This document shows, in pieces, positions 3,064 through 55,781 of a stretch of DNA of 64,000 nucleotides. Every line of letters starts with the position of its first letter. The stretch's first letter is position 1. Source of the DNA: a bacterium (GTDB lineage: Bacteria > SZUA-182 > DTGQ01); contig JAILZY010000010.1 in the NCBI GenBank assembly GCA_023512255.1, positions 2,246-66,245 on the forward strand, read 5' to 3'. The notes under the pieces were generated by a model that searched no databases, was not told the DNA's origin, and was given only the letters and a program-made list of their open reading frames with translations. Made by a program: the position numbers and the translations under genes.

Positions 3064-4271
3064 AAATGAAGAAGAGGGCGCAGGCGGCCCTAGACAAACC
3101 AGCCCAATACGGCCCTGATGTTGATCTTAGCCGCTTTACCCTGATAGCTCCCCAAGAGTCGTATCAGGAGGATCTGAGCCAGCTTCCGGCTGAGCTGTCC
3201 AGGCAAGTACTATCGGCTGGTATTGAAACGGGAGAAAAGGGCCGCTCAGGAACCTATTTTCAGAAAAACCACTCAGTAATACACTGCCAGATTCACCAGG
3301 AGGGAGTCGAGATTTTAACCATCGACCAGGCCCTGGCCAAATACGACTGGCTAAAGGATTACTACTGGAAGATGATCCCGCCGGATCAGGACAAATACAC
3401 AGCCTGGGCGTATCTTAATCCGCATCATGGATACTTTATCCGCACCCGGCCAGGGGTCAAAACCCTGTTTCCCGTTCAAGCCTGCCTTTATATGGAGCAA
3501 GACAACCTGGTACAAAACATACATAATATCATCATTGCCGAAGAAGAATCTGAGCTTGACATAATAACTGGCTGTGCCGCCCGGCCGCGAATGAGGCAAG
3601 GGCTGCACGTAGGAGTGTCTGAATTCTATATCAAAAAGGGGGCTCGACTCACCTTCACCATGATTCACAACTGGGCCGAGGAGATGGATGTTCGCCCACG
3701 CTCGGCAGCTTCTGTGGGACCTTCGGGTATTTTCATCTCCAATTATGTTTCCATGAAGCCTATTCACTCGCTCCAGATGTATCCGACAACCTGGCTAGAG
3801 GGGAAAGATTCCCTGGCCCGCTACTATAACATCCTGGTGGCCAGCAGAGGCTCTGAGCTCGATGTTGGCTCACGGGTTATCCTTAAGGCTGAGGGCGGCC
3901 GGGCTGAGGTAGTGAGTCGGGCTATTTCAGCCGGAGGCAACATCCGGGCCAGGGGATGTCTAGTCGGAAAGGAAAAAGATATCAAGGCTCACCTTGAATG
4001 CCGTGGTCTGATTCTTGAGCGGGGAGGAATGATTCAGGCTATTCCAGAGCTTGAGGGCTATCTGCCAGGCATAGACCTCTCTCACGAAGCCGCGGTAGGA
4101 AAGATTGCCCAGGAAGAGATAAACTATCTGATGGCCAGGGGACTTCCTGAATCAGAAGCCATTGCCGCCATTGTGCGGGGATTTTTGACCGTCGATATTG
4201 CCGGGCTTCCGACCGAGTTGCAAGCGGAATTGAATCGGGTGGTGGAGGAGAGTGAAAAAACCCTCCTATAG
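3042..4271 (+). CDS. sufB: Fe-S cluster assembly scaffold, SufB/SufD family
   Basis: C-terminal SufBD beta-helix signature (HNWAEEMDV..., ...ISAGGNIRARGCLVG). Overlaps sufC by 22 nt, which suggests translational coupling. No sufS, sufE or sufU adjacent. Confidence 0.7.
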   Translation: MCAMHDLEMKKRAQAALDKPAQYGPDVDLSRFTLIAPQESYQEDLSQLPAELSRQVLSAGIETGEKGRSGTYFQKNHSVIHCQIHQEGVEILTIDQALAKYDWLKDYYWKMIPPDQDKYTAWAYLNPHHGYFIRTRPGVKTLFPVQACLYMEQDNLVQNIHNIIIAEEESELDIITGCAARPRMRQGLHVGVSEFYIKKGARLTFTMIHNWAEEMDVRPRSAASVGPSGIFISNYVSMKPIHSLQMYPTTWLEGKDSLARYYNILVASRGSELDVGSRVILKAEGGRAEVVSRAISAGGNIRARGCLVGKEKDIKAHLECRGLILERGGMIQAIPELEGYLPGIDLSHEAAVGKIAQEEINYLMARGLPESEAIAAIVRGFLTVDIAGLPTELQAELNRVVEESEKTLL

Positions 4272-4645: not shown

Positions 4646-7600
4646 ATGGAATTGATATCACTCCAAAAAACTGCTTACCTGGAAGATGATCCCCTGTGGT
4701 ATAAGGATGCAGTCATCTATGAGCTTCACGTAAGGGCCTTTTACGATAGCAATGGTGATGGTATCGGAGACTTCCCAGGGCTTACCCAAAAACTTGATCA
4801 TCTAGAAAATCTCGGCATAACAGCCATCTGGCTCCTCCCTTTTTATCCATCACCCCTGCGCGATGATGGATATGACATCGCTAACTATTTTGATGTCCAT
4901 CCTGACTACGGCACGCTGCGAGACTTTAAGGAGTTTCTCAAAGAGGCTCATCGTCGTGGAATCAGGGTTATTACGGAGCTGGTCTTAAACCATACCTCCG
5001 ATCAGCATGAGTGGTTTCAAAGGGCGAGAAGAGCAAAACCCGGCTCTAAGTGGAGAAATTTCTACGTCTGGGATTCACCGCAAAAGTATCAAGACGCCAG
5101 GATCATCTTCAAAGACTTCGAAACCTCCAATTGGGCTTGGGATCCGCTAGCCAAGACTTATTATTGGCACCGCTTTTATTCCCATCAGCCAGATCTTAAC
5201 TACGACCATCCCCCCGTCCAGAAGGCCATGCTGAGGGTAATCGACTACTGGCTTAATATGGGTGTAGATGGCTTGCGTCTTGATGCCGTCCCCTACCTCT
5301 TTGAGCGGGAGGGAACCAATTGCGAGAATCTGCCAGAAACTTTCGAATTTTTGAAAAAACTGAGGGCTCATATTGATAGCCGATTCAAGGGCAGGATGCT
5401 TCTAGCCGAGGCTAACCAGTGGCCGGAGGATGCGGTTAACTATTTCGGACAGGGTGATGAGTGCCATATGGCCTTTCATTTTCCCCTGATGCCCAGGATG
5501 TTTATGGCTATCAGGATGGAAAACCGATACCCGATCATAGAAATCCTCGATCAGACACCGCCGATCCCTGATGTGTGTCAGTGGGCACTTTTTTTACGAA
5601 ATCATGATGAGCTTACCCTTGAGATGGTAACCGATGAAGAGCGGGATTATATGTACAGGATTTACGCCAAAGACCGCACAGCCAGGATCAATCTTGGGAT
5701 TCGAAGGCGTCTGGCCCCGCTCCTTGAAAATGACCGCAGAAAGATAGAGCTGATGAATTTCCTTCTTCTTTCTCTGCCGGGGACTCCGGTGATCTACTAT
5801 GGTGATGAGATCGGTATGGGAGATAACTATTACCTCGGAGACAGGAATGGGGTCAGAACCCCCATGCAGTGGAGTGGAGACAGAAACGCCGGATTCTCGC
5901 GGGCTAATCCCCAGAAGCTCTATTTGCCCGTGATTATTGATCCTGAGTACCACTATGAAGCCGTTAACGTGGAGAATCAGGACAGAAGCCAATCCTCCCT
6001 GCTATGGTGGATGAGACATTTCATCGCTATGAGAAACAATTTCAAGGCCTTTGGTCGGGGGAGGATTGAATTTCTCTACCCTGAGAATATGAAGATTTTG
6101 GCTTTTATCCGCCAGTATCAGGATGAGAACATTCTGGTGGTCGTGAATCTGTCGCGGCATCCTCAACTGGTCGAGCTAGACCTTTCTAAGTACGCCGGTT
6201 ATGTACCGGTAGAGGCCTTCAGTAAGAATCCCTTTCTGGCCATTAGGGAGCATCATCCTTACGCCCTGACCCTCGGATCATACGGCTATTACCTGTTTCT
6301 GCTAGAGAGGCAGAAGGAGGGAGGAGAAGTGCGAGCCACGAGGGCTCTGCCCCAAATCCAAGTAAGCCGAAAGTGGGAGATGCTTTTTGAGGGGAAAGCA
6401 AAAGAGGTGCTCGAGGAGGAGATATTGCCTCTTTTCCTGAAAAACGCCCGCTGGTTTGGAGGTAAGATGAGGCGGATTCAGCAGGTCAAGATAGTGAAAG
6501 ATATTTCGGTTGGCAAGACCCCTCCGGCCACTCATCTCCTCTTCCTTGAGGTTCAGTACACAGAAGGGGTCCCTGACATGTATCTGCTGCCGCTCAGTTT
6601 TGCCCAAGAAGATCAGGGGCAAAAAATTATCGAGGAATCACCGCAGGGAGTAATAGCCAAGTTGGCGGTTGATGAGACCAGAGGAATAATCTACGATGGC
6701 CTCTATAGCCCTAAATTTCGCCATGATCTTTTGATGATGGTGGTCAAAAGGCTTAAAGTTAAGGATAAAGAAGGTGAGTTGGCTGCCTATCCAGGAAAGG
6801 CGCTTCGGGATTTCATCAGACGGGAGCAAATCCCTTCCGAATCCCAGGTGTTGCGGGCAGAGCAGAGTAACTCCTCCATTCTCTACGGGAATAAATTTTT
6901 CCTTAAGCTGTTTAGACGGCTTGAGGAGGGAATGAATTCAGAGCTTGAGATGCTTTGGTTTCTGACTGAAAAGTTATCTTTCCCCCATGTGCCGCCCTTT
7001 GCTGGAGTGATTGAGTATCGAAAACCAAAGGCAGAGCCGCTTATCTTGGCTATTGTTCAGGGGTTTGTGCCTAATGCAGGAGATGCCTGGAGTTATACCC
7101 TCGATGCGCTGGAGGGGTATTTTGGCATGGTACTTTCCAAGGTAGGCGAGATTCAAGAGCTTCCGAAAGCCCCAGCTTCGCCTCTTGAGGCGGCTTATCA
7201 GGAAATTCCACCGCTTTTTCAGGAGCTTATGTCAGCTTATCTTGACATGATTAGCATCTTGGGCAAAAGAACAGCAGAGCTCCACCTTGCTCTGGCCTCA
7301 GACCCAGAAAATCCTCATTTTGCCTTAGAGCCTTACTCGCTTCTTCACCAGCGGGCCGTTTATCAATCATTGCAAACCGGGGCCTTGCACACCCTTCAAC
7401 TTCTGGAAAAAAGCCTATCGGTGCTTCCTGCTGAGGAAAGAAAGCTGGCTGAGGAGATTCTCAGCTCAAAGAAACAGGTAATTAGTAAGTTTAAGGCTAT
7501 TCTCCAAAAGAAGATCTGCAGTGGAAAGATCAGGATTCACGGGGATTACCACTTAGGACAGGTGCTCTATACAGGGAAGGATTTTGTGATTATTGACTTT

Positions 7601-7990: not shown

Positions 7991-8139
7991 GGGGAAAACC
8001 CTTTTGAAAAAGGGTTTTCCCCTTGTAACCCCTTTCCTAAAACTTTAATAACTATAGTTATTAAAGTTTTAGGAGGATGGTTTGGAAGGAACCCTTTTTC
8101 AAAAGGGTTCCTTCCAAAGAATAAGGGTTCCTTCCAAAA
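7991..8139. repeat. MITE/REP-like composite palindromic element, copy 2 (complete: P1, P2, P3 and an extra half-site)
   Basis: P1 ggggaaaacccttttgaaaaagggttttcccc (7991-8022). P2 cctaaaactttaataactatagttattaaagttttagg (8036-8073). P3 ggaaggaaccctttttcaaaagggttccttcc (8084-8115). Extra gggttccttccaaaaa. Sits immediately after the treS stop. Confidence 0.8.
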
Positions 8140-8157
8140 ATATAGTGGAGATTAGAT

Positions 8158-10164
8158 GTGGAGAGAGTGAGTCTTTTAACTGAGAATGATATTTATTTAT
8201 TTAGGGAAGGGAGCCATTTTAGGCTTTATGAGAAGCTTGGCTCGCATTTGCTCACTGTTGATGGAACCAGTGGAGTTTACTTTGCAGTCTGGGCTCCGAA
8301 TGCTGAGCAGGTTACAGTGATGGGAAAATTCAACGACTGGAACCCTGACTCCCATCCCTTGGCCCTGCGAGCGGATGGCTCAGGGATTTGGGAGGTGTTT
8401 ATTCCGGGGATCGCTCACGGAACTCCTTATAAGTACCATATCAGATCAAGGTATGAAAACTACCGCGCTGATAAGGGAGACCCATTTGCTTTCTTTTGGG
8501 AGCCTGCCCCAGAGACAGCCTCGGTAGTCTGGGACTTAAAGTATGAGTGGGCAGACAGTGATTGGATGAAAAACCGCAGCCAGGCCAATGCTCTCAATGC
8601 GCCTATAGCTATCTACGAAGTGCATCTTGGATCGTGGAGGCGGCATCCAGAAGATGGAGGCCGACCACTCACCTATCGGGAGATAGCCGAGCCCCTGGCT
8701 GATTATGTCAAGAAGATGGGGTTTACTCACGTTGAGTTTCTGCCGATTATGGAGCATCCCTTCTATGGCTCCTGGGGATATCAGATCGTCGGCTTTTTTG
8801 CTCCTACCAGCAGATTCGGCACTCCTCAGGATTTTATGTATCTGATCGATTATCTCCACCAGCGCGGGATAGGGGTTATCCTTGACTGGGTGCCTTCGCA
8901 TTTTCCCGATAATATCCAGGGGTTGGTCTACTTTGATGGTACGCATCTTTATGAGCATGCTGATCCGCGAAAGGGATTCCATCCCGAATGGAAGAGCTAT
9001 ATCTTTAACTATGGTCGCCACGAGGTCAGGGCGTTTCTGATTAGCTTTGCGCTCTTTTGGTTTGACCGCTACCATATTGATGGCATCAGGGTAGATGCCG
9101 TAGCCTCCATGCTCTACCTTGACTATGCCCGGAAAGAGGGCGAGTGGATCCCGAATGAGTATGGCGGCAAGGAGAATATCGAAGCCATTAGCTTTATCAA
9201 ACGGCTGAATGAGGCTATCTACCGGGCCTACCCTGATGTTCAGACCATAGCTGAAGAGTCAACCGCCTGGCCGATGGTTTCTCGGCCGATTTATATCGGA
9301 GGGTTAGGGTTTGGCCTAAAATGGAACATGGGCTGGATGCATGATACTCTGTCTTATTTTTCCAAAGACCCTGTCTATCGAAAGTATCATCATAATCAGT
9401 TGACCTTCAGCATCTGGTATGCTTTCTGGGAAAACTTTGTTCTGCCCCTCTCTCATGATGAAGTGGTCTATGGGAAAGGCTCTCTACTTAGCAAAATGCC
9501 TGGGGATGATTGGCAGAAATTCGCTAATCTGCGCCTTTTGCTAGGTTATATGTATGCTCATCCGGGCAAAAAGCTCTTGTTTATGGGCGGAGAGTTCGCC
9601 CAGTGGCGAGAGTGGAACCATGATGAAAGCCTTGAGTGGCATCTTCTGGCATATTTTCCCCATCAAGGGGTGCAGAGGTGGGTCGAAGACCTAAATCACC
9701 GCTATGCTTCAGAGCCTGCACTCTATGAGCTTGACTTTAGCAGCCAAGGGTTTGAATGGGTAGATTTTCATGATGCTGAATCAAGTGTAATTAGCTTTAT
9801 CAGGCGGGGGAAAACAACCCTTGATCAGATCTTAGTAGTCTGCAATTTCACTCCAGTGCCTAGAGAAAATTACCTAGTGGGAGTGCCGCAAGGCGGCCTC
9901 TGGAAAGAGATCCTAAACAGCGATGCCACGATTTATGGCGGAAGCGGCTGGGGGAATTTCGGTCAAGTCGAGGCTACCCCATTTCCTGCTCATGGTCGGA
10001 ACTACTCTCTGTCGCTGGTGCTGCCCCCTCTTGGCATTATTTTCCTCAAGAAAGAGGCAGGAGAACCAGAGGTTAAGGCGGAAGGAGAGCTTGCAGAGCT
10101 AGGAGAGGTTGCTGTGCCGGAGCAAAAGGAGCAAGAAGCGCCGGAAAATGAAGGCTGTGAGTGA
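8158..10164 (+). CDS. glgB: 1,4-alpha-glucan branching enzyme (short form) with an acidic C-terminal tail
   Basis: GH13 branching-enzyme motifs ([57 protein letters not shown]). 668 aa, lacks the long N-terminal domain. Ends in [14 protein letters not shown]. Confidence 0.85.
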
Positions 10165-10874
10165 GAGAGTGTATGCACTATCAGGATATTCATCCCTGGG
10201 CGGTTAGTCCTCAAGAAGCAGCTGAGATTCAACGAAGGCTTAGCCAGATGGTTGAGTCCCGACCCATTACCAAGCCGATAGCCTTGGTCGCCGGAGCAGA
10301 TATCTCTTACTCAAAGAGAGATAATCGCCTAGTGGCTGCGGTGGTAGTCATGACCTTCCCGAAGCTTGAGATCGTAGAGCAGATCGAGGTCGAGGGAGAA
10401 ACTGCCTTTCCCTATATTCCGGGCTTTCTTAGCTTTCGCGAAGCACCAGCCATGCTCGAAGCTTTTAGCCGGCTGCGGCATGAGCCTGATGTTATCATGG
10501 TTGACGGCCAAGGCATAGCCCATCCACGAGGCTTGGGCCTTGCCTCTCACCTTGGGGTAATCCTTGACCATCCGACCATTGGTTGCGCCAAGACCAGACT
10601 AATTGGAAAATACGCCGAGCCTGGAGAGCAAAAGGGAGAAAGATCTCCTCTCTGGCAGGGTGGAAAAATAATCGGCATGGTGCTTAGAACTAGACGAGGG
10701 ACCAAGCCGCTGTTTATCTCCATTGGCCACAAGATCGACCTAGATACAGCAGTGTCAATAGTTTTGGCCTGTACCAGAGCCTTTCGTCTTCCAGAACCTG
10801 TACGACAAGCTCACCTTTTTTGTAAGGGGAAAACCCTTTTGAAAAAGGGTTTTCCCCTTAAACCCTTTTCCTAA
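10161..10874 (+). CDS. nfi: Endonuclease V (deoxyinosine 3' endonuclease)
   Basis: Colinear with E. coli Nfi ([60 protein letters not shown]). The last roughly 14 codons and the stop are supplied by MITE copy 3. Confidence 0.8.
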
Positions 10875-52112: not shown

Positions 52113-52607
52113 TTAGGGGATAATCTTTTCTTCTTTCAATGTCTCTTGAATAGCTTTTCGAATAGCTTTCTGGGTCATCAGAGCGCTGTTTTGGTTTGGG
52201 TAGGGCTGGCGGCGCCAGATAAATCCTCTGGTAAACAGGCCGTCCTTATTCCACCGAGGGACGATATGAATATGAAGGTGCATAACCCTTTGGCTGATCC
52301 GGTTATTGATGGCTATGAAAGAGCCGTCGGCTTTAAGGCCAAGTTCCAGGGAGCGGGCTATGAGCTGGGCATTGCGAAAGAGGGGCTGAATGAGATCGGG
52401 CGGCAGGTCGAGAAAGTTTTCATAGTGCTGTCGTGGGACCAGTAGAACATGACCTCTGAGTAGGGGCTGGTGGTCAAGGAAAGCCAGCGAATCTTCATCT
52501 TCAAAGATGGTCAAGCTTTCGCTTTGGCCTTGAATGATCCTGCAAAAAGTACATTCAGGGTTCAGTATTTGGCTCTGAGAGGTAATTTTCTGATTTTGCT
52601 CACTCAT
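52113..52607 (-). CDS. HIT-family (histidine triad) nucleotide hydrolase
   Basis: Histidine-triad motif HLHIHIVPR, with GHVLLVPRQH upstream. Confidence 0.7.
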   Translation of the reverse strand: MSEQNQKITSQSQILNPECTFCRIIQGQSESLTIFEDEDSLAFLDHQPLLRGHVLLVPRQHYENFLDLPPDLIQPLFRNAQLIARSLELGLKADGSFIAINNRISQRVMHLHIHIVPRWNKDGLFTRGFIWRRQPYPNQNSALMTQKAIRKAIQETLKEEKIIP

Positions 52608-52639
52608 TTATATCCTCATACTTTCTTTTAATGATAACT

Positions 52640-52728
52640 TAATGACAATCCTTAGGGTCTTGCTTTAGGGGCTTGTCTTATCCTTGTTGTTAGCTTCTAT
52701 CCTCACTTTTCGCTCTTTTAAGCCCTAA
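52640..52728. repeat. Direct repeat A (about 87 bp), about 90% identical to a second copy at 54197-54285
   Basis: aatgacaatccttagggtcttgctttaggggcttgtcttatccttgttgttagcttctatcctcacttttcgctcttttaagccct versus aatgacagtctttagggccttgctttatgggcttgtcttatccttgctggcagcttctatcctcgctttttgctcttttaagtcct. Confidence 0.8.
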
Positions 52729-53138
52729 TTTACTATCCTCATTACTTTTTTCCCCTCCTCCTCCCCCATCTCTCATCTCTACTACCTTGGGAATAAGGGG
52801 GCGGCTGTCCTAATAACTCAATCTGAGTATCAACATCTGTGGTCCCCTGCTTATCTATCTAGCCAGGGGGAATACTTGACGTCGATAGACTATACTGATA
52901 ATAAAGAGCTTGAAATTATTGATAGTATTCCCCCTTATCCTCTTCCATGTTTATCTCCATTTCTGGTATCAACTTCATCTTCGGAAGATACACAAGCATA
53001 GGAAATGGCCCGCTTAGGTGTGTTTGGTGTGTGAGGGGGTATCTTGCCCTTATCCTGCTGTTTGGGCTATGATAGGAATACGCCTGGCCAATGAGCTCTT
53101 CATTGATCCGGCCGGGGTAGGCAGAGTGCTAGTGGCAC

Positions 53139-53684
53139 TCACCGGTCCGACTTAATTTTTTGTTTGCTCAATTCTACGAGCATTTGCATGATGGTATCAA
53201 GTCTTTGGTTTACTTGTCCAATCTGAGTATCGATCTTCTGATTTAGTTGTCCAATCTGGGTATCGATTTTCTGGTTTAATTGTCCAATCTGAGTATCGAT
53301 CTTCTGGTTTAGTTGTCCAATCTGAGTATCGATTTTCTGTTCAAGAGCATCTACTTTTTGATCTACCCTATCAATCTTTTGGTTTACTTGCCCTATGTAA
53401 GTATCAATCTTTTGGTTTACTTGTTCTATCTGAGTTTCAACTTTCTGCTCAAGAGCATCTACTTTTTGATCTATTCTCTGGTTTATCTGATCTACTCTCT
53501 GATTTATCTGGCTGATTTCTTGCCTGACTTGTCCAATTTGAGTATTGAGATATCGAAAGTCGGCCTCTTGCTTGTTTTTGAGCTCTGCTATATCCCTTTT
53601 AATTTCTGCCGTCCGCTCCTCTATGGCCTCATAGATTATTTCCAGCGATATCTTCTTGATTATCCTGTTAGCAAGCTCTTTCAT
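53139..53684 (-). CDS. Coiled-coil protein built of tandem 11-residue (hendecad) repeats QKIDTQIGQLN
   Basis: Start taken at MKELANRI (ATG 53684). At least 12 near-identical 11-mers. No TM segment or signal peptide. Confidence 0.5.
   Translation of the reverse strand: MKELANRIIKKISLEIIYEAIEERTAEIKRDIAELKNKQEADFRYLNTQIGQVRQEISQINQRVDQINQRIDQKVDALEQKVETQIEQVNQKIDTYIGQVNQKIDRVDQKVDALEQKIDTQIGQLNQKIDTQIGQLNQKIDTQIGQLNQKIDTQIGQVNQRLDTIMQMLVELSKQKIKSDR
53214..53345. repeat. Four perfect or near-perfect 33-bp tandem repeats (ttgtccaatctgagtatcgatcttctggtttag), with degenerate copies to about 53530, encoding the hendecad repeats
   Basis: Units at 53214-53246, 53247-53279, 53280-53312 and 53313-53345. 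Confidence 0.85.
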
Positions 53685-53685
53685 T

Positions 53686-53934
53686 TCACAACTGCCTTGC
53701 TGAAAAAAGAAATAACGGTCTGAATCCAGGAGTTTGAAGCTGGGCAAAGCCGAAGAATATAGCGATAGCCGCAGCAATTAAGCCTAAAAAGAAGGTAATT
53801 GCACTTCCAAGTATCCGATAATGTCTACCTGCTTTGTTACTCCTAATCTTCCCCTCGGGGATTAATTTCATAAGAGTCTGCCTGGTAATTCTTAGATATT
53901 CTGCAGCCTCTTTTGTGGTTAAAACTTCGTGCAT
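53686..53934 (-). CDS. Excisionase/MerR-type helix-turn-helix DNA-binding protein with a C-terminal transmembrane helix
   Basis: LTTKEAAEYLRITRQTLMKLIPEGKIRSNKAGRHYRI is an excisionase-family HTH. Then ITFFLGLIAAAIAIFFGF. Its stop is 1 nt from the start of the coiled-coil gene. A frameshifted fusion of the two genes is an alternative reading. Confidence 0.5.
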   Translation of the reverse strand: MHEVLTTKEAAEYLRITRQTLMKLIPEGKIRSNKAGRHYRILGSAITFFLGLIAAAIAIFFGFAQLQTPGFRPLFLFSARQL

Positions 53935-54196
53935 TTTTATTTACCTAGTCAACTATATTGTTTTGCTTCAGTTACTAAAAATATACTTTGATTAACAGTC
54001 ATGGTCAAGCAAATAATTCAGTTATTGTTATAGTCAATCAATATAGTCAAGCCAAAAATTCACCAGAAATAGAGTATGAGCCCGAGGTTGAGAGGCAAAG
54101 TCTGAGCAAGTTGCCAGAAGGGGGCCAGCGGTAGCCCCGATATTGATAGCGTAATTGATCCACTGCACTTGTGCTACACATTTAGCGAAAAGACCA

Positions 54197-54285
54197 ATGA
54201 CAGTCTTTAGGGCCTTGCTTTATGGGCTTGTCTTATCCTTGCTGGCAGCTTCTATCCTCGCTTTTTGCTCTTTTAAGTCCTCTTC
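54197..54285. repeat. Direct repeat B (partner of 52640-52728)
   Basis: See repeat A. Overlaps the last roughly 22 codons of the metallophosphoesterase gene. Confidence 0.8.
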
Positions 54286-54990
54286 TCCCACAGTCAGGAG
54301 GCACCAGTCGCGGTGGCCAAAACGGCTTTGAACAAAGCGGGAAACGTTATGAACCGGAATACCGCCTGGAGTTAAAGCATAGGGTGAGCCATGATGGGCG
54401 TGAGCATGGACAACCACATCTACCTTGTGGCGGTCAAAGACATCGGCAAAGAGTGATGAGCCGAGAAAAGGGTAGAGCTCGATCTCCTCGCCCAGCAGAG
54501 TCTCTTTGATCGGGGCATAATGCATAGCCGCTACCCTGAATGGGCAATTCAGCTCTGCCAGCGCCTTGTCAATTCGCGAGGCTTCATTGATGCTGGTCTT
54601 GATAAAGTTTTTCAGGGCCTGCTCGCCGAATGGCTGGACATGCAGTTTCCCAAATCCACCGCAAAAGCCCTTAGTGCCGACAATTCCCACCTTATCTATC
54701 AGGCAACTGGTACCGTCTAGTACCAAGATGCCGCTTTCGGTCATCATCTTGATTAGGAGCTCTATCTGGTTACTCTCATGATCATGGTTTCCGATAACCG
54801 CGACTTTTGGCAGAGAAAAGAAGCTCAGCTCATCTAGCAGGACCTCCATTTCTTCGACTAACCCCAGGTTGGTGATATCCCCCGCTAGAAGCAGAATATC
54901 GGCTTCACGGTCTACTCCTTTCAGAAGCTGTCTAATCATTCCGGCAGAGTCGCTTTTGCAGTGGAGATCGCCGATAGCGGCGATTCTCAT
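54220..54990 (-). CDS. Calcineurin-like metallophosphoesterase
   Basis: MRIAAIGDLHCKSD, LLAGDITNLG, AVIGNHDHE, HAHAHHG are the MPE motifs I-V. Confidence 0.65.
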   Translation of the reverse strand: MRIAAIGDLHCKSDSAGMIRQLLKGVDREADILLLAGDITNLGLVEEMEVLLDELSFFSLPKVAVIGNHDHESNQIELLIKMMTESGILVLDGTSCLIDKVGIVGTKGFCGGFGKLHVQPFGEQALKNFIKTSINEASRIDKALAELNCPFRVAAMHYAPIKETLLGEEIELYPFLGSSLFADVFDRHKVDVVVHAHAHHGSPYALTPGGIPVHNVSRFVQSRFGHRDWCLLTVGEEDLKEQKARIEAASKDKTSP

Positions 54991-55781
54991 ATCCGCTCCC
55001 CCTTATCGTTGACTAGGGGAAGCAGGTTGTAGCCATTTTCATATCCCCACAGCCGGCAGTCTACAGCAAAGGCGAACGGATCGAGCAGCATACCACGGAA
55101 AGCCTTTGTTTTCACAGGTCTCGACCACCCCTCCCGCATCTGTTCGAAAAGGGTAACTATAAGCTCCTTGGGTAGATAATCTGAGTGAGAAGGATAGACA
55201 AAATCAAAGAGAATGAAATAGATCAAAATGATTTCCTGGTTGTCCTTAAGATGCATGAGCACCCGCGGCCAATCGATTTTCCCCTGAACTCCCCGAATAA
55301 GGTGGACGATGTCTGCACCGTCAAAGCGGTCTCTTTTGAGCATGTAAACCTTTGAGGCGATCAATTCCTCAACTGCGGCCAGGTAAGTCTTGACCCCGAG
55401 GAGCTCAACCGGCTGGCAGCGCTCAAACCAGGTCTGGTCAATCGGGAACTGGCTGCTTGATGTTCCAAAGATCAGGTCCATGAGATATGGCTTCTGGTGT
55501 ACCTTGGCTAGCCAATGAACATCCCTGACCTCGGTTTCAAATCCCATCCTGCTCAGGGCATCAAGGGCCTTTTTGAGATCGCTCGGCTGGAGAAAGATAT
55601 CAACATCTTTTGTGTCCCGCCAGATGCCGGTATAAGCGTATACGGCAAAGGCTCCGCCTACCACGTATTTGACGCCTGCTTCATTCAGGATGGTCAGCCA
55701 GCGGGAGAAAACCTCAGCCTCCTTGGGCTCGATCTTGATATTGTCCATTGTTATTTGGTTTATCGGCGATTCTCTATCCAT
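54987..55781 (-). CDS. Pol-beta-superfamily nucleotidyltransferase-like protein
   Basis: KYVVGGAFAVYAYTGIWRDTKDVDIF fits the G[GS]...D.D minimal NTase signature. The 3' end overlaps the MPE start by 4 nt. Confidence 0.45.
   Translation of the reverse strand: MDRESPINQITMDNIKIEPKEAEVFSRWLTILNEAGVKYVVGGAFAVYAYTGIWRDTKDVDIFLQPSDLKKALDALSRMGFETEVRDVHWLAKVHQKPYLMDLIFGTSSSQFPIDQTWFERCQPVELLGVKTYLAAVEELIASKVYMLKRDRFDGADIVHLIRGVQGKIDWPRVLMHLKDNQEIILIYFILFDFVYPSHSDYLPKELIVTLFEQMREGWSRPVKTKAFRGMLLDPFAFAVDCRLWGYENGYNLLPLVNDKGERI

Follow-up and report, generated by a model that had tools for sequence, protein, structure and literature searches.

A decayed mobile-element insertion, probably the relic of a small integrative plasmid-like element, between the metallophosphoesterase and HIT-family genes of an uncultivated bacterium

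Results

The locus and its direct repeats

The locus lies in a 64,000-nucleotide (64-kb) stretch of DNA, hereafter the window, that is otherwise ordinary chromosome with histidine biosynthesis genes, IF-2, SAM synthetase, multihaem cytochromes and others. Positions are those of the window, and all features described below are given on the minus strand, which carries every gene of the region. Read along that strand, these are a nucleotidyltransferase gene (54987-55781), a metallophosphoesterase ORF (54220-54990; 256 aa; PF00149, E = 1.6e-14), an ORF with an HTH_17 domain, a hendecad coiled-coil ORF, 412 nt without a credible ORF, a repeat that we term A, and a HIT-family gene (52113-52607; PF01230, E = 3.8e-21).

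Repeat A (52641-52726) has a partner, repeat B (54196-54281). Both are 86 nt long, and both were delimited by a repeat search, alignment and blastn. They are in direct orientation and align without gaps at 76 of 86 positions (88%); when they are aligned together with 40-nt flanks, identity stops sharply at either edge. Repeat B consists of the last 62 nt of the metallophosphoesterase ORF and 24 nt past its stop codon. Repeat A lies upstream of the HIT gene and ends 33 nt from its start codon (52607). A blastn search of the whole window with A or B returned the other copy as the sole match (E = 2.4e-21), with no third copy in the window, and a 16-mer from the repeat has exactly two matches there, in A and in B. 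The initial annotation had described two direct repeats, about 90% identical, in this place. They are real and unique in the window; their location was given correctly and their extent was drawn 1-4 nt too wide.

Two other identities for the repeat were considered and rejected. Were it a generic repeat, it should recur at many unrelated loci. An 18-mer compared with 185,579 species genomes gave 10 single matches in unrelated taxa, about 17 being expected by chance on our estimate; the scan had no match in the window's own genome, which seems to be outside the collection, and the count of two copies refers to the window. Nor does the repeat resemble a structured RNA: Rfam contains no match at E <= 1, and on both strands the predicted fold is no better than that of shuffled sequences (z-scores from -0.01 to +1.39).

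The metallophosphoesterase tail and the empty site

Nearly all homologues of the metallophosphoesterase have 233-236 aa, and they cover 91-92% of the 256-aa window protein. Their lengths and the stop-codon alignment given below delimit a native part, residues 1-236 (54282-54990). The extra 20 residues of the window protein and its stop codon are encoded by repeat B; none of the listed homologues has such a tail. Read in that frame, A and B differ by six nonsynonymous changes and one synonymous change, so the tail is without coding constraint, and the differences are equally dense past the stop codon. The tail is thus read-through into duplicated non-coding intergenic DNA, and not a selected extension.

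The closest relative (P0002; genome GCA_040755755.1, locus L002) has a metallophosphoesterase that is 85% identical to that of the window. Its gene order is nucleotidyltransferase, metallophosphoesterase (236 aa), 89 nt and HIT, that is, an empty site. In the alignment, the stop codon of its metallophosphoesterase falls on window codon 54282-54280, a codon lying across the first base of repeat B. Because this site is empty in the closest relative, the segment is an insertion. It is also missing from another relative (L006). The comparison with related genomes for presence or absence of the segment, proposed in the initial annotation, has thus come out in favor of insertion; the contrary outcome, a segment universally conserved in relatives without the repeats, is contradicted by both L002 and L006. 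The insert has a GC content of 41.1%, versus 47.6% for the window and 48-51% for the two neighboring genes; that of a related intact element (L037, described below) is 41.8%.

The insert in other contigs of the species

The insert and both repeats recur in four more conspecific contigs (L027, L028, L029 and L030), whose flanking genes are 98-99% identical to those of the window. The insert is present in all five contigs of the species that were examined, the window included, and no empty or excised allele was seen among them. Between the window and L028, no part of the locus has diverged more than A and B (91-92% identity). Variants of A and B are shared as a mosaic between the two copies across the contigs, a pattern that points to gene conversion between them.

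Genes and non-coding parts of the insert

The insert proper (52752-54195) is 1.44 kb long and holds only two credible genes, the HTH_17 ORF and the coiled-coil ORF. The same two ORFs had been listed in the initial annotation as the sole content of the segment, the first of them as an HTH protein with a TM helix. The count of two stands; the HTH/TM combination as a real type of protein does not, as this ORF is a fusion of two neighboring genes.

The ORF in question (53686-53934) encodes 82 aa, with a PF12728 match (E = 2.9e-11) and a hydrophobic helix. Residues 4-46 score above the curated cutoffs of both PF12728 and TIGR01764 (for the latter, 50.4 bits versus a cutoff of 28.8). The first 45 or so residues can be aligned with “excisionase family” HTH_17 proteins of 63 aa (P0122, P0123), and the DNA of the HTH half and of the 85 nt upstream of it (window 54020-53809) matches positions 150-379 of L038, an integrase-bearing locus, with 75.7% identity. 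Residues from about 42 to 70 align instead with the conserved C-terminal TM segment of another family (P0124-P0135), whose members consist of a repetitive coiled coil followed by ...DNKSTRHWILGSAITFFVGFIAAAIAIFFGFAQLQTSWIQTVISFVGKVVVK. At the DNA level this TM part is 82-86% identical to coiled-coil+TM genes in nine other loci, those named being L017, L018, L020, L021 and L023-L026. After ...AQLQT the ORF leaves the frame of the coiled-coil+TM family, whose true tail is found in another frame (53731-53684). By these alignments, the ORF is a fusion, brought about by a deletion, of an HTH_17 gene with the TM end of the gene after it, and a frameshift lies beyond the fused part. In the four contigs L027-L030 the HTH N-terminus is itself frameshifted (MHEVLTIKKLQNI*), and the chimera is therefore a pseudogene. 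No complete winged-helix HTH_17 domain in an intact gene was found at the locus; the domain is cut after about residue 45, fused, and frameshifted in L027-L030.

The second gene (53139-53684; 181 aa) is built of 33-nt tandem units, each of 11 codons, as seen with TRF (period 33) and in the repeat search; the 11-residue repeats reported in the initial annotation are thereby borne out. Its start codon shares bases with the stop codon that ended the coiled-coil+TM gene in its original frame (ATGA). The protein is homologous to L020 464-910 (E = 5e-22), and it shares 52% and 61% aa identity with a 119-aa and a 162-aa protein of L031/L037, respectively, the gene for the latter being 76% identical in DNA. 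Product lengths of 181, 126 and 119 aa occur, which differ from one another by complete hendecad units. Every contig of the species that spans the gene has it intact; L027 ends inside it. Outside the coiled-coil repeats, codon differences among these contigs number four synonymous and one nonsynonymous. On such patterns of variation, the gene seems to be kept in the species. PADLOC was consulted for a role in defence, and it gave only non-specific coiled-coil matches (ZorA, LmuB, JetC) and a match of the L038 HTH protein to mad1 (E = 2e-07); neither was taken as evidence. A literature search on hendecad coiled coils in mobile elements found nothing relevant.

The rest of the insert is non-coding. 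The part next to B (54021-54195) is rich in indels between contigs of the species and has no match in any related element that was compared; within the region of L028 that matches it there are about 130 extra nt. The region upstream of the HTH_17 ORF (53935-54020), which matches L038 in DNA, has a promoter-like site, TTGACC-17-TATATT at 54008-53980, according to a consensus scan. On the other side, 52752-53138 contains no recognizable gene; a 13-nt piece of a hendecad unit lies near 52810-52833. Relics of an integrase or other element genes in these non-coding parts were sought by tblastn with no match, and the translations are stop-rich frames only.

No recombinase was found in the insert or in the 64-kb window, either by tblastn and phmmer with three integrases, one serine recombinase and one TnpB as queries or by Pfam searches of 38 ORFs. 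The search for such an enzyme that the initial annotation had called for was thus negative within the window. Its suggestion of a decayed segment holds: the integrase has been lost, the HTH_17 ORF is chimeric and frameshifted, and it is further broken in the other contigs.

A second repeat pair and the att question

Abutting repeat A on its insert side is a short copy, X (52727-52751), of the ribosome-binding region of the HIT gene. Its counterpart, Y (52606-52628), lies together with the native spacer between A and HIT (spacer and Y, 52606-52640) and runs into the first two bases of the start codon. In a local alignment of X and Y, the 17-25 nt directly before A match the ribosome-binding region directly before the HIT start. 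In L028, the exact 16-mer TATGAGGATAGTAAAT occurs twice, at 6887 and 7035, against a chance expectation of 0.17 matches. The order on the gene strand is thus metallophosphoesterase, B, insert, X, A, spacer, Y, HIT. It follows from this order that the entire native intergenic region (the 86-nt sequence, R, plus spacer and ribosome-binding region, about 121 nt) was duplicated. The signs of a tandem duplication are all present: R occurs twice (as B and A), the ribosome-binding segment occurs twice (as X and Y), and X abuts A as it would at the junction of two units. By this arrangement, the foreign DNA sits inside the first copy of the duplicated unit, and not between two clean att cores. A spacer motif, TTATCAT, is also found in the intergenic region of L002 at a similar distance from the start, a likeness that supports a native origin of the spacer and hence of the duplicated unit. 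In L028, the spacer contains a 24-nt tandem duplication.

Are A and B, then, an att pair, as had been suggested? In favor are the direct repeats at the ends of the insert, the empty site in L002 and the homology of the cargo to integrase-bearing elements. Wanting are an integrase in or near the element and any presence/absence or excision polymorphism in the five contigs. Further, no attP-like copy of the 86-nt sequence is apparent in L020, L021, L032, L037 or L038, where Smith-Waterman scores did not exceed those of shuffled controls; these elements are relatives only 52-76% identical and may use other sites. We do not call A and B att sites, because no intact relative has the sequence and because the X/Y repeat exists. 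Of the proposal of a small integrated or decayed mobile segment with att-like flanks, what survives is the insertion between direct repeats, the mobile-element ancestry of the genes and the decay; the simple att pair is not upheld.

Related elements

The genes of the insert recur as a module, composed of HTH_17, coiled-coil+TM and hendecad coiled-coil genes, beside Xer-like tyrosine integrases (L020, L031/L037). L020 has an HTH_17 gene, a coiled-coil+TM gene, a 312-aa tyrosine integrase (PF00589) and a second coiled-coil+TM gene, as well as a D5-type primase, an AAA_25 helicase and a 9-nt tandem-repeat array resembling iterons. L037 encodes AAA_25, HTH_17 (63 aa), coiled-coil+TM (88 aa), coiled-coil (119 aa), integrase (319 aa), HTH_17 (75 aa), coiled-coil (162 aa) and primase-helicase proteins; it contains 9-nt iterons as well, and its sequence shows a periodicity of about 6.9 kb. 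A CRISPR-like mini-array was noticed in L037/L032. In L038, a 63-aa HTH_17 protein is followed by a 107-aa coiled-coil+TM protein and then by a 317-aa Xer-like integrase. Because the genes of the window match the modules of L020, L037 and L038, we regard the insert as the accessory module of such an element. L020, L021, L037 and L038 are the intact relatives of the remnant named here, and an intact element co-occurs with the species in all three JGI metagenomes (3300005573, 3300027863 and 3300009503).

The coiled-coil+TM family is small and rare: it has 15 representatives at E <= 1e-10 among 1.84 billion proteins and has no matches in IMG/VR or in phage and plasmid collections. One of its members, in a relative genome (L017), is the solitary gene of a 951-nt insert between 52-nt direct repeats that are 94% identical. 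The first of these repeats consists of the 3'-terminal part of a GXGXG-domain gene, as far as the stop codon. A second repeat of the X/Y type is absent in L017. At other coiled-coil or coiled-coil+TM loci (L018, L021, L023-L026 and L035), no flanking repeats were found.

Discussion

We propose, with a probability of about 0.6, that the insert is the decayed, CIME-like remnant of a small integrative plasmid-like element in the intergenic region between the metallophosphoesterase and HIT genes. An element with a Xer-like tyrosine integrase would have entered this region in an ancestor of the species. Its integration would have placed it between two copies of the native 86-nt intergenic sequence, B in the attL position and A in the attR position, and the integrase would thereby have made the duplication. 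Deletions would later have taken out the integrase and replication genes, one of them joining HTH_17 to the TM end of the gene that follows; the hendecad coiled-coil gene is the sole gene still intact. The remnant would be unable to move on its own, and its loss would require either homologous recombination of A with B or a related integrase supplied in trans. Within this account, the insertion, the origin of the genes in mobile elements, the loss of the integrase, the pseudogenization and the occurrence in all five contigs are shown, and the part of an integrase in the duplication is inferred.

The low GC content of the insert, close to that of the intact element L037, is consistent with this proposal. 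Against it are the lack of a candidate attP in the intact relatives, of an integrase and of an excised allele in the five contigs, and the solitary loci L018, L023-L026 and L035, which are without flanking repeats. The X/Y repeat also speaks against it, since the flank of A that is proximal to the insert is native DNA from downstream of the repeat, a feature that a simple attP x attB reaction does not predict. We rank integration with later rearrangement first of three possible histories because L017 offers a parallel and because the cargo descends from such elements; the evidence does not discriminate among integration, tandem duplication plus insertion, and re-integration of a circle.

A credible, if unlikely, competitor invokes two unrelated events. 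A unit of about 121 nt would have been duplicated in tandem, after which a fragment of a mobile element would have been inserted illegitimately into the first spacer, replacing about 15 nt of it; the 86-nt copies would then not be att sites. This history accounts for the order of the pieces, in which unit 1 is split by the insert and is followed by an intact unit 2, and the 24-nt spacer duplication in L028 suggests a locus prone to small duplications. It also suits the absence of the repeat from intact elements, the absence of an integrase and the mosaic variants of A and B, which fit gene conversion between ordinary homologous repeats. Its cost is the need for two independent rare events at one spot. 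Further, the coiled-coil+TM insert at L017 has clean 52-nt flanking repeats and no feature of the X/Y type, which suggests that the flanking duplication comes with insertions of this kind.

More doubtful still is a third history, in which the element, first resident in the spacer, was excised aberrantly as a circle that contained R, the element and the ribosome-binding region, with a junction of that region to R, and then re-entered a naive chromosome by Campbell-type recombination in R. One final event would thus explain both the 86-nt and the X/Y repeats, and the 12% divergence of A and B would fit a donor and a recipient that were different strains. The scheme is purely inferential, with no such circle or donor allele found, and two sequences of 86 bp that are 88% identical are poor substrates for homologous recombination. 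That the segment is instead a native functional module, with a regulator, a membrane or stress coiled-coil protein and repeats that are duplicated regulatory DNA (promoter, 5' UTR, terminator), is very improbable: its coiled-coil gene is intact in the contigs that span it, with mostly synonymous change, and the consensus scan gives the insert a promoter-like site of its own, but the idea is largely refuted by the absence of the segment from the closest relatives (L002, with its empty site, and L006) and by the pseudogenization of the HTH::TM ORF (chimeric, frameshifted, and broken in four of the five contigs), and it also sits poorly with the low GC and with a repeat that has neither predicted structure nor an Rfam match.

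Two familiar kinds of mobile unit do not fit the insert. It is not an integron cassette, because the repeat has no hairpin fold of the kind sought for attC; there are also two copies only and no integrase in the window. Nor is it an IS or MITE, because its ends have no terminal inverted repeats; the duplication measures 86-121 nt, and a transposase is absent.

Closer likenesses are found among integrative elements. Small integrative plasmids or elements that combine a Xer-like tyrosine recombinase with a primase-helicase for replication form a general class. L020 and L037 are like them in having an integrase (PF00589), a primase-helicase of the D5_N or AAA_25 type and an HTH_17 excisionase-like gene, whereas the window retains the accessory module only, with no gene for replication or integration. 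The remnant itself may be compared with a CIME, an element that lacks an integrase but keeps attL and attR (PMC5704250). As in a CIME, a short remnant without an integrase lies between direct repeats, and one of the repeats sits at a gene's 3' end; the cargo of the remnant comes from an integrase-bearing element, and related intact elements are present in the same communities. The locus differs in that the repeats here are only putative att sites whose attP counterpart was not found, and in that the X/Y duplication is unlike a clean attL/attR pair. Further, the host is an uncultivated bacterium and the parent a small plasmid-like element rather than an ICE.

These considerations bear on annotation. 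What looks like an excisionase with a TM helix is an artefact of fusion in a decaying locus, and no protein family should be built on it. Like members of the excisionase/HTH_17 family (TIGR01764, PF12728), it has 63-aa orthologues that adjoin integrases, but its own domain breaks off after about residue 45, where a foreign TM segment is joined on. The hendecad coiled-coil gene would be annotated as retained mobile-element cargo. The locus is an ordinary relic of a mobile element, neither active nor a new kind of element. It points to poorly described small integrative plasmid-like elements in uncultivated bacteria, equipped with HTH_17, coiled-coil+TM and hendecad coiled-coil genes and a Xer-like integrase, and this parent family may be a more interesting lead than the relic.

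The likeness between the window and L017 also allows a broader view, to which we assign a low probability. Coiled-coil or coiled-coil+TM genes might travel as non-autonomous cassettes that are inserted in trans by the Xer-like integrase of co-occurring integrative plasmids, at sites at or just after the 3' ends of genes and with long att identity of 50-90 bp. The insertions at the window locus (86 nt) and at L017 (52 nt) would, on this view, have occurred independently. If true, this would be a new class of integrase-less cassette, with the length-variable hendecad gene as its selected cargo.

As to the family that donated the TM segment, its combination of a coiled coil with a C-terminal TM segment recalls XhlA/holin-like proteins (PF10779), and there are weak matches to XhlA, holin and “hemolysin” PHROG families. 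Every one of these matches is below the curated cutoff, the best to PF10779 scoring 24.6 bits versus 34.7.

Flanking repeats and variation within the species

The window contains a second, short direct repeat, X/Y (52727-52751 and 52606-52628), by which the RBS region of the HIT-family gene is present again immediately before repeat A. What has actually been duplicated is therefore a native intergenic stretch of about 121 nt. At the other flank, the metallophosphoesterase of the window carries a C-terminal tail of 20 amino acids (54220-54281) that is not covered by the listed homologs. This tail results from read-through into the repeat, at the site of the stop codon in the closest relative.

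Two indels beside the repeats are specific to L028, another contig of the window's species. After repeat B comes an additional block of about 130 nt (5571-5699), delimited by the repeated motif TACGCTATCAATAT, and a 24-nt tandem duplication (CAGTTATCATTAAAA...) lies in the spacer after repeat A (6991-7034). The hendecad coiled-coil gene of the insert also differs among contigs of the species, in this case in its number of 33-nt hendecad units. It encodes 181 amino acids in the window (53139-53684), 119 in L028 (6155-6514), and 126 in L029, a further contig of the species (5001-5381); the ORF is intact at all three lengths. The Logan contig L001 ends within the hendecad repeats of this gene.

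A parallel insert and the possible spread of coiled-coil+TM genes

The genome with the empty site, GCA_040755755.1, holds another small insert of the type seen in the window, at locus L017. This insert comprises 951 nt and has a solitary coiled-coil+TM gene at 6001-6285; by eye, it possibly also includes a small antitoxin-like ORF with a frameshift. Direct repeats of 52 nt that are 94% identical flank the insert (5541-5592 and 6544-6595); the first copy consists of the 3' end of a GXGXG-domain gene and extends to the stop codon of that gene.

In the coiled-coil+TM genes, the end that encodes the TM segment shows 80-87% DNA identity between the window (53675-53819) and L017, L018, L020, L021, and L023-L026, whereas the coiled-coil portions vary freely. 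The contigs sharing this end have been binned to very different organisms, including one MAG labelled Nitrososphaerota. Such conservation across distant bins suggests either recent horizontal spread or mis-binning. At L021, a locus of an integrase-bearing relative, a putative TnpB-like ORF (1095-2171) and a putative serine recombinase (5765-6571), both judged from sequence only, adjoin an integrase, an HTH_17 gene, and two coiled-coil+TM genes. This region is rich in mobile elements.

Arrays in related, integrase-bearing elements

In the intact element, a CRISPR-like mini-array sits between the integrase and the hendecad coiled-coil gene. At L037 (JGI 3300005573, Ga0078972_1001200), it occupies 3278-3554 and comprises five copies of ATCGTCCCCACGCACGTGGGGGTGAACC with a period of 61 nt. 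The same element from another sample (L032) has a longer run of about 1 kb (about 1770-2800) with the same 61-nt period; the repeat ATCGTCCCCACGCACGTGGGGGTGAACC does not occur in the window. Further, L037 has 9-nt iteron arrays, TGTTACTGC/TGTTACCGG, at 1204-1663 and 8069-8537, and the integrase-bearing locus L020 has one, TTATTCACC, at 10108-10246. The iteron arrays of both loci adjoin AAA_25 or primase-helicase genes, and they are presumably the replication origins of the elements.
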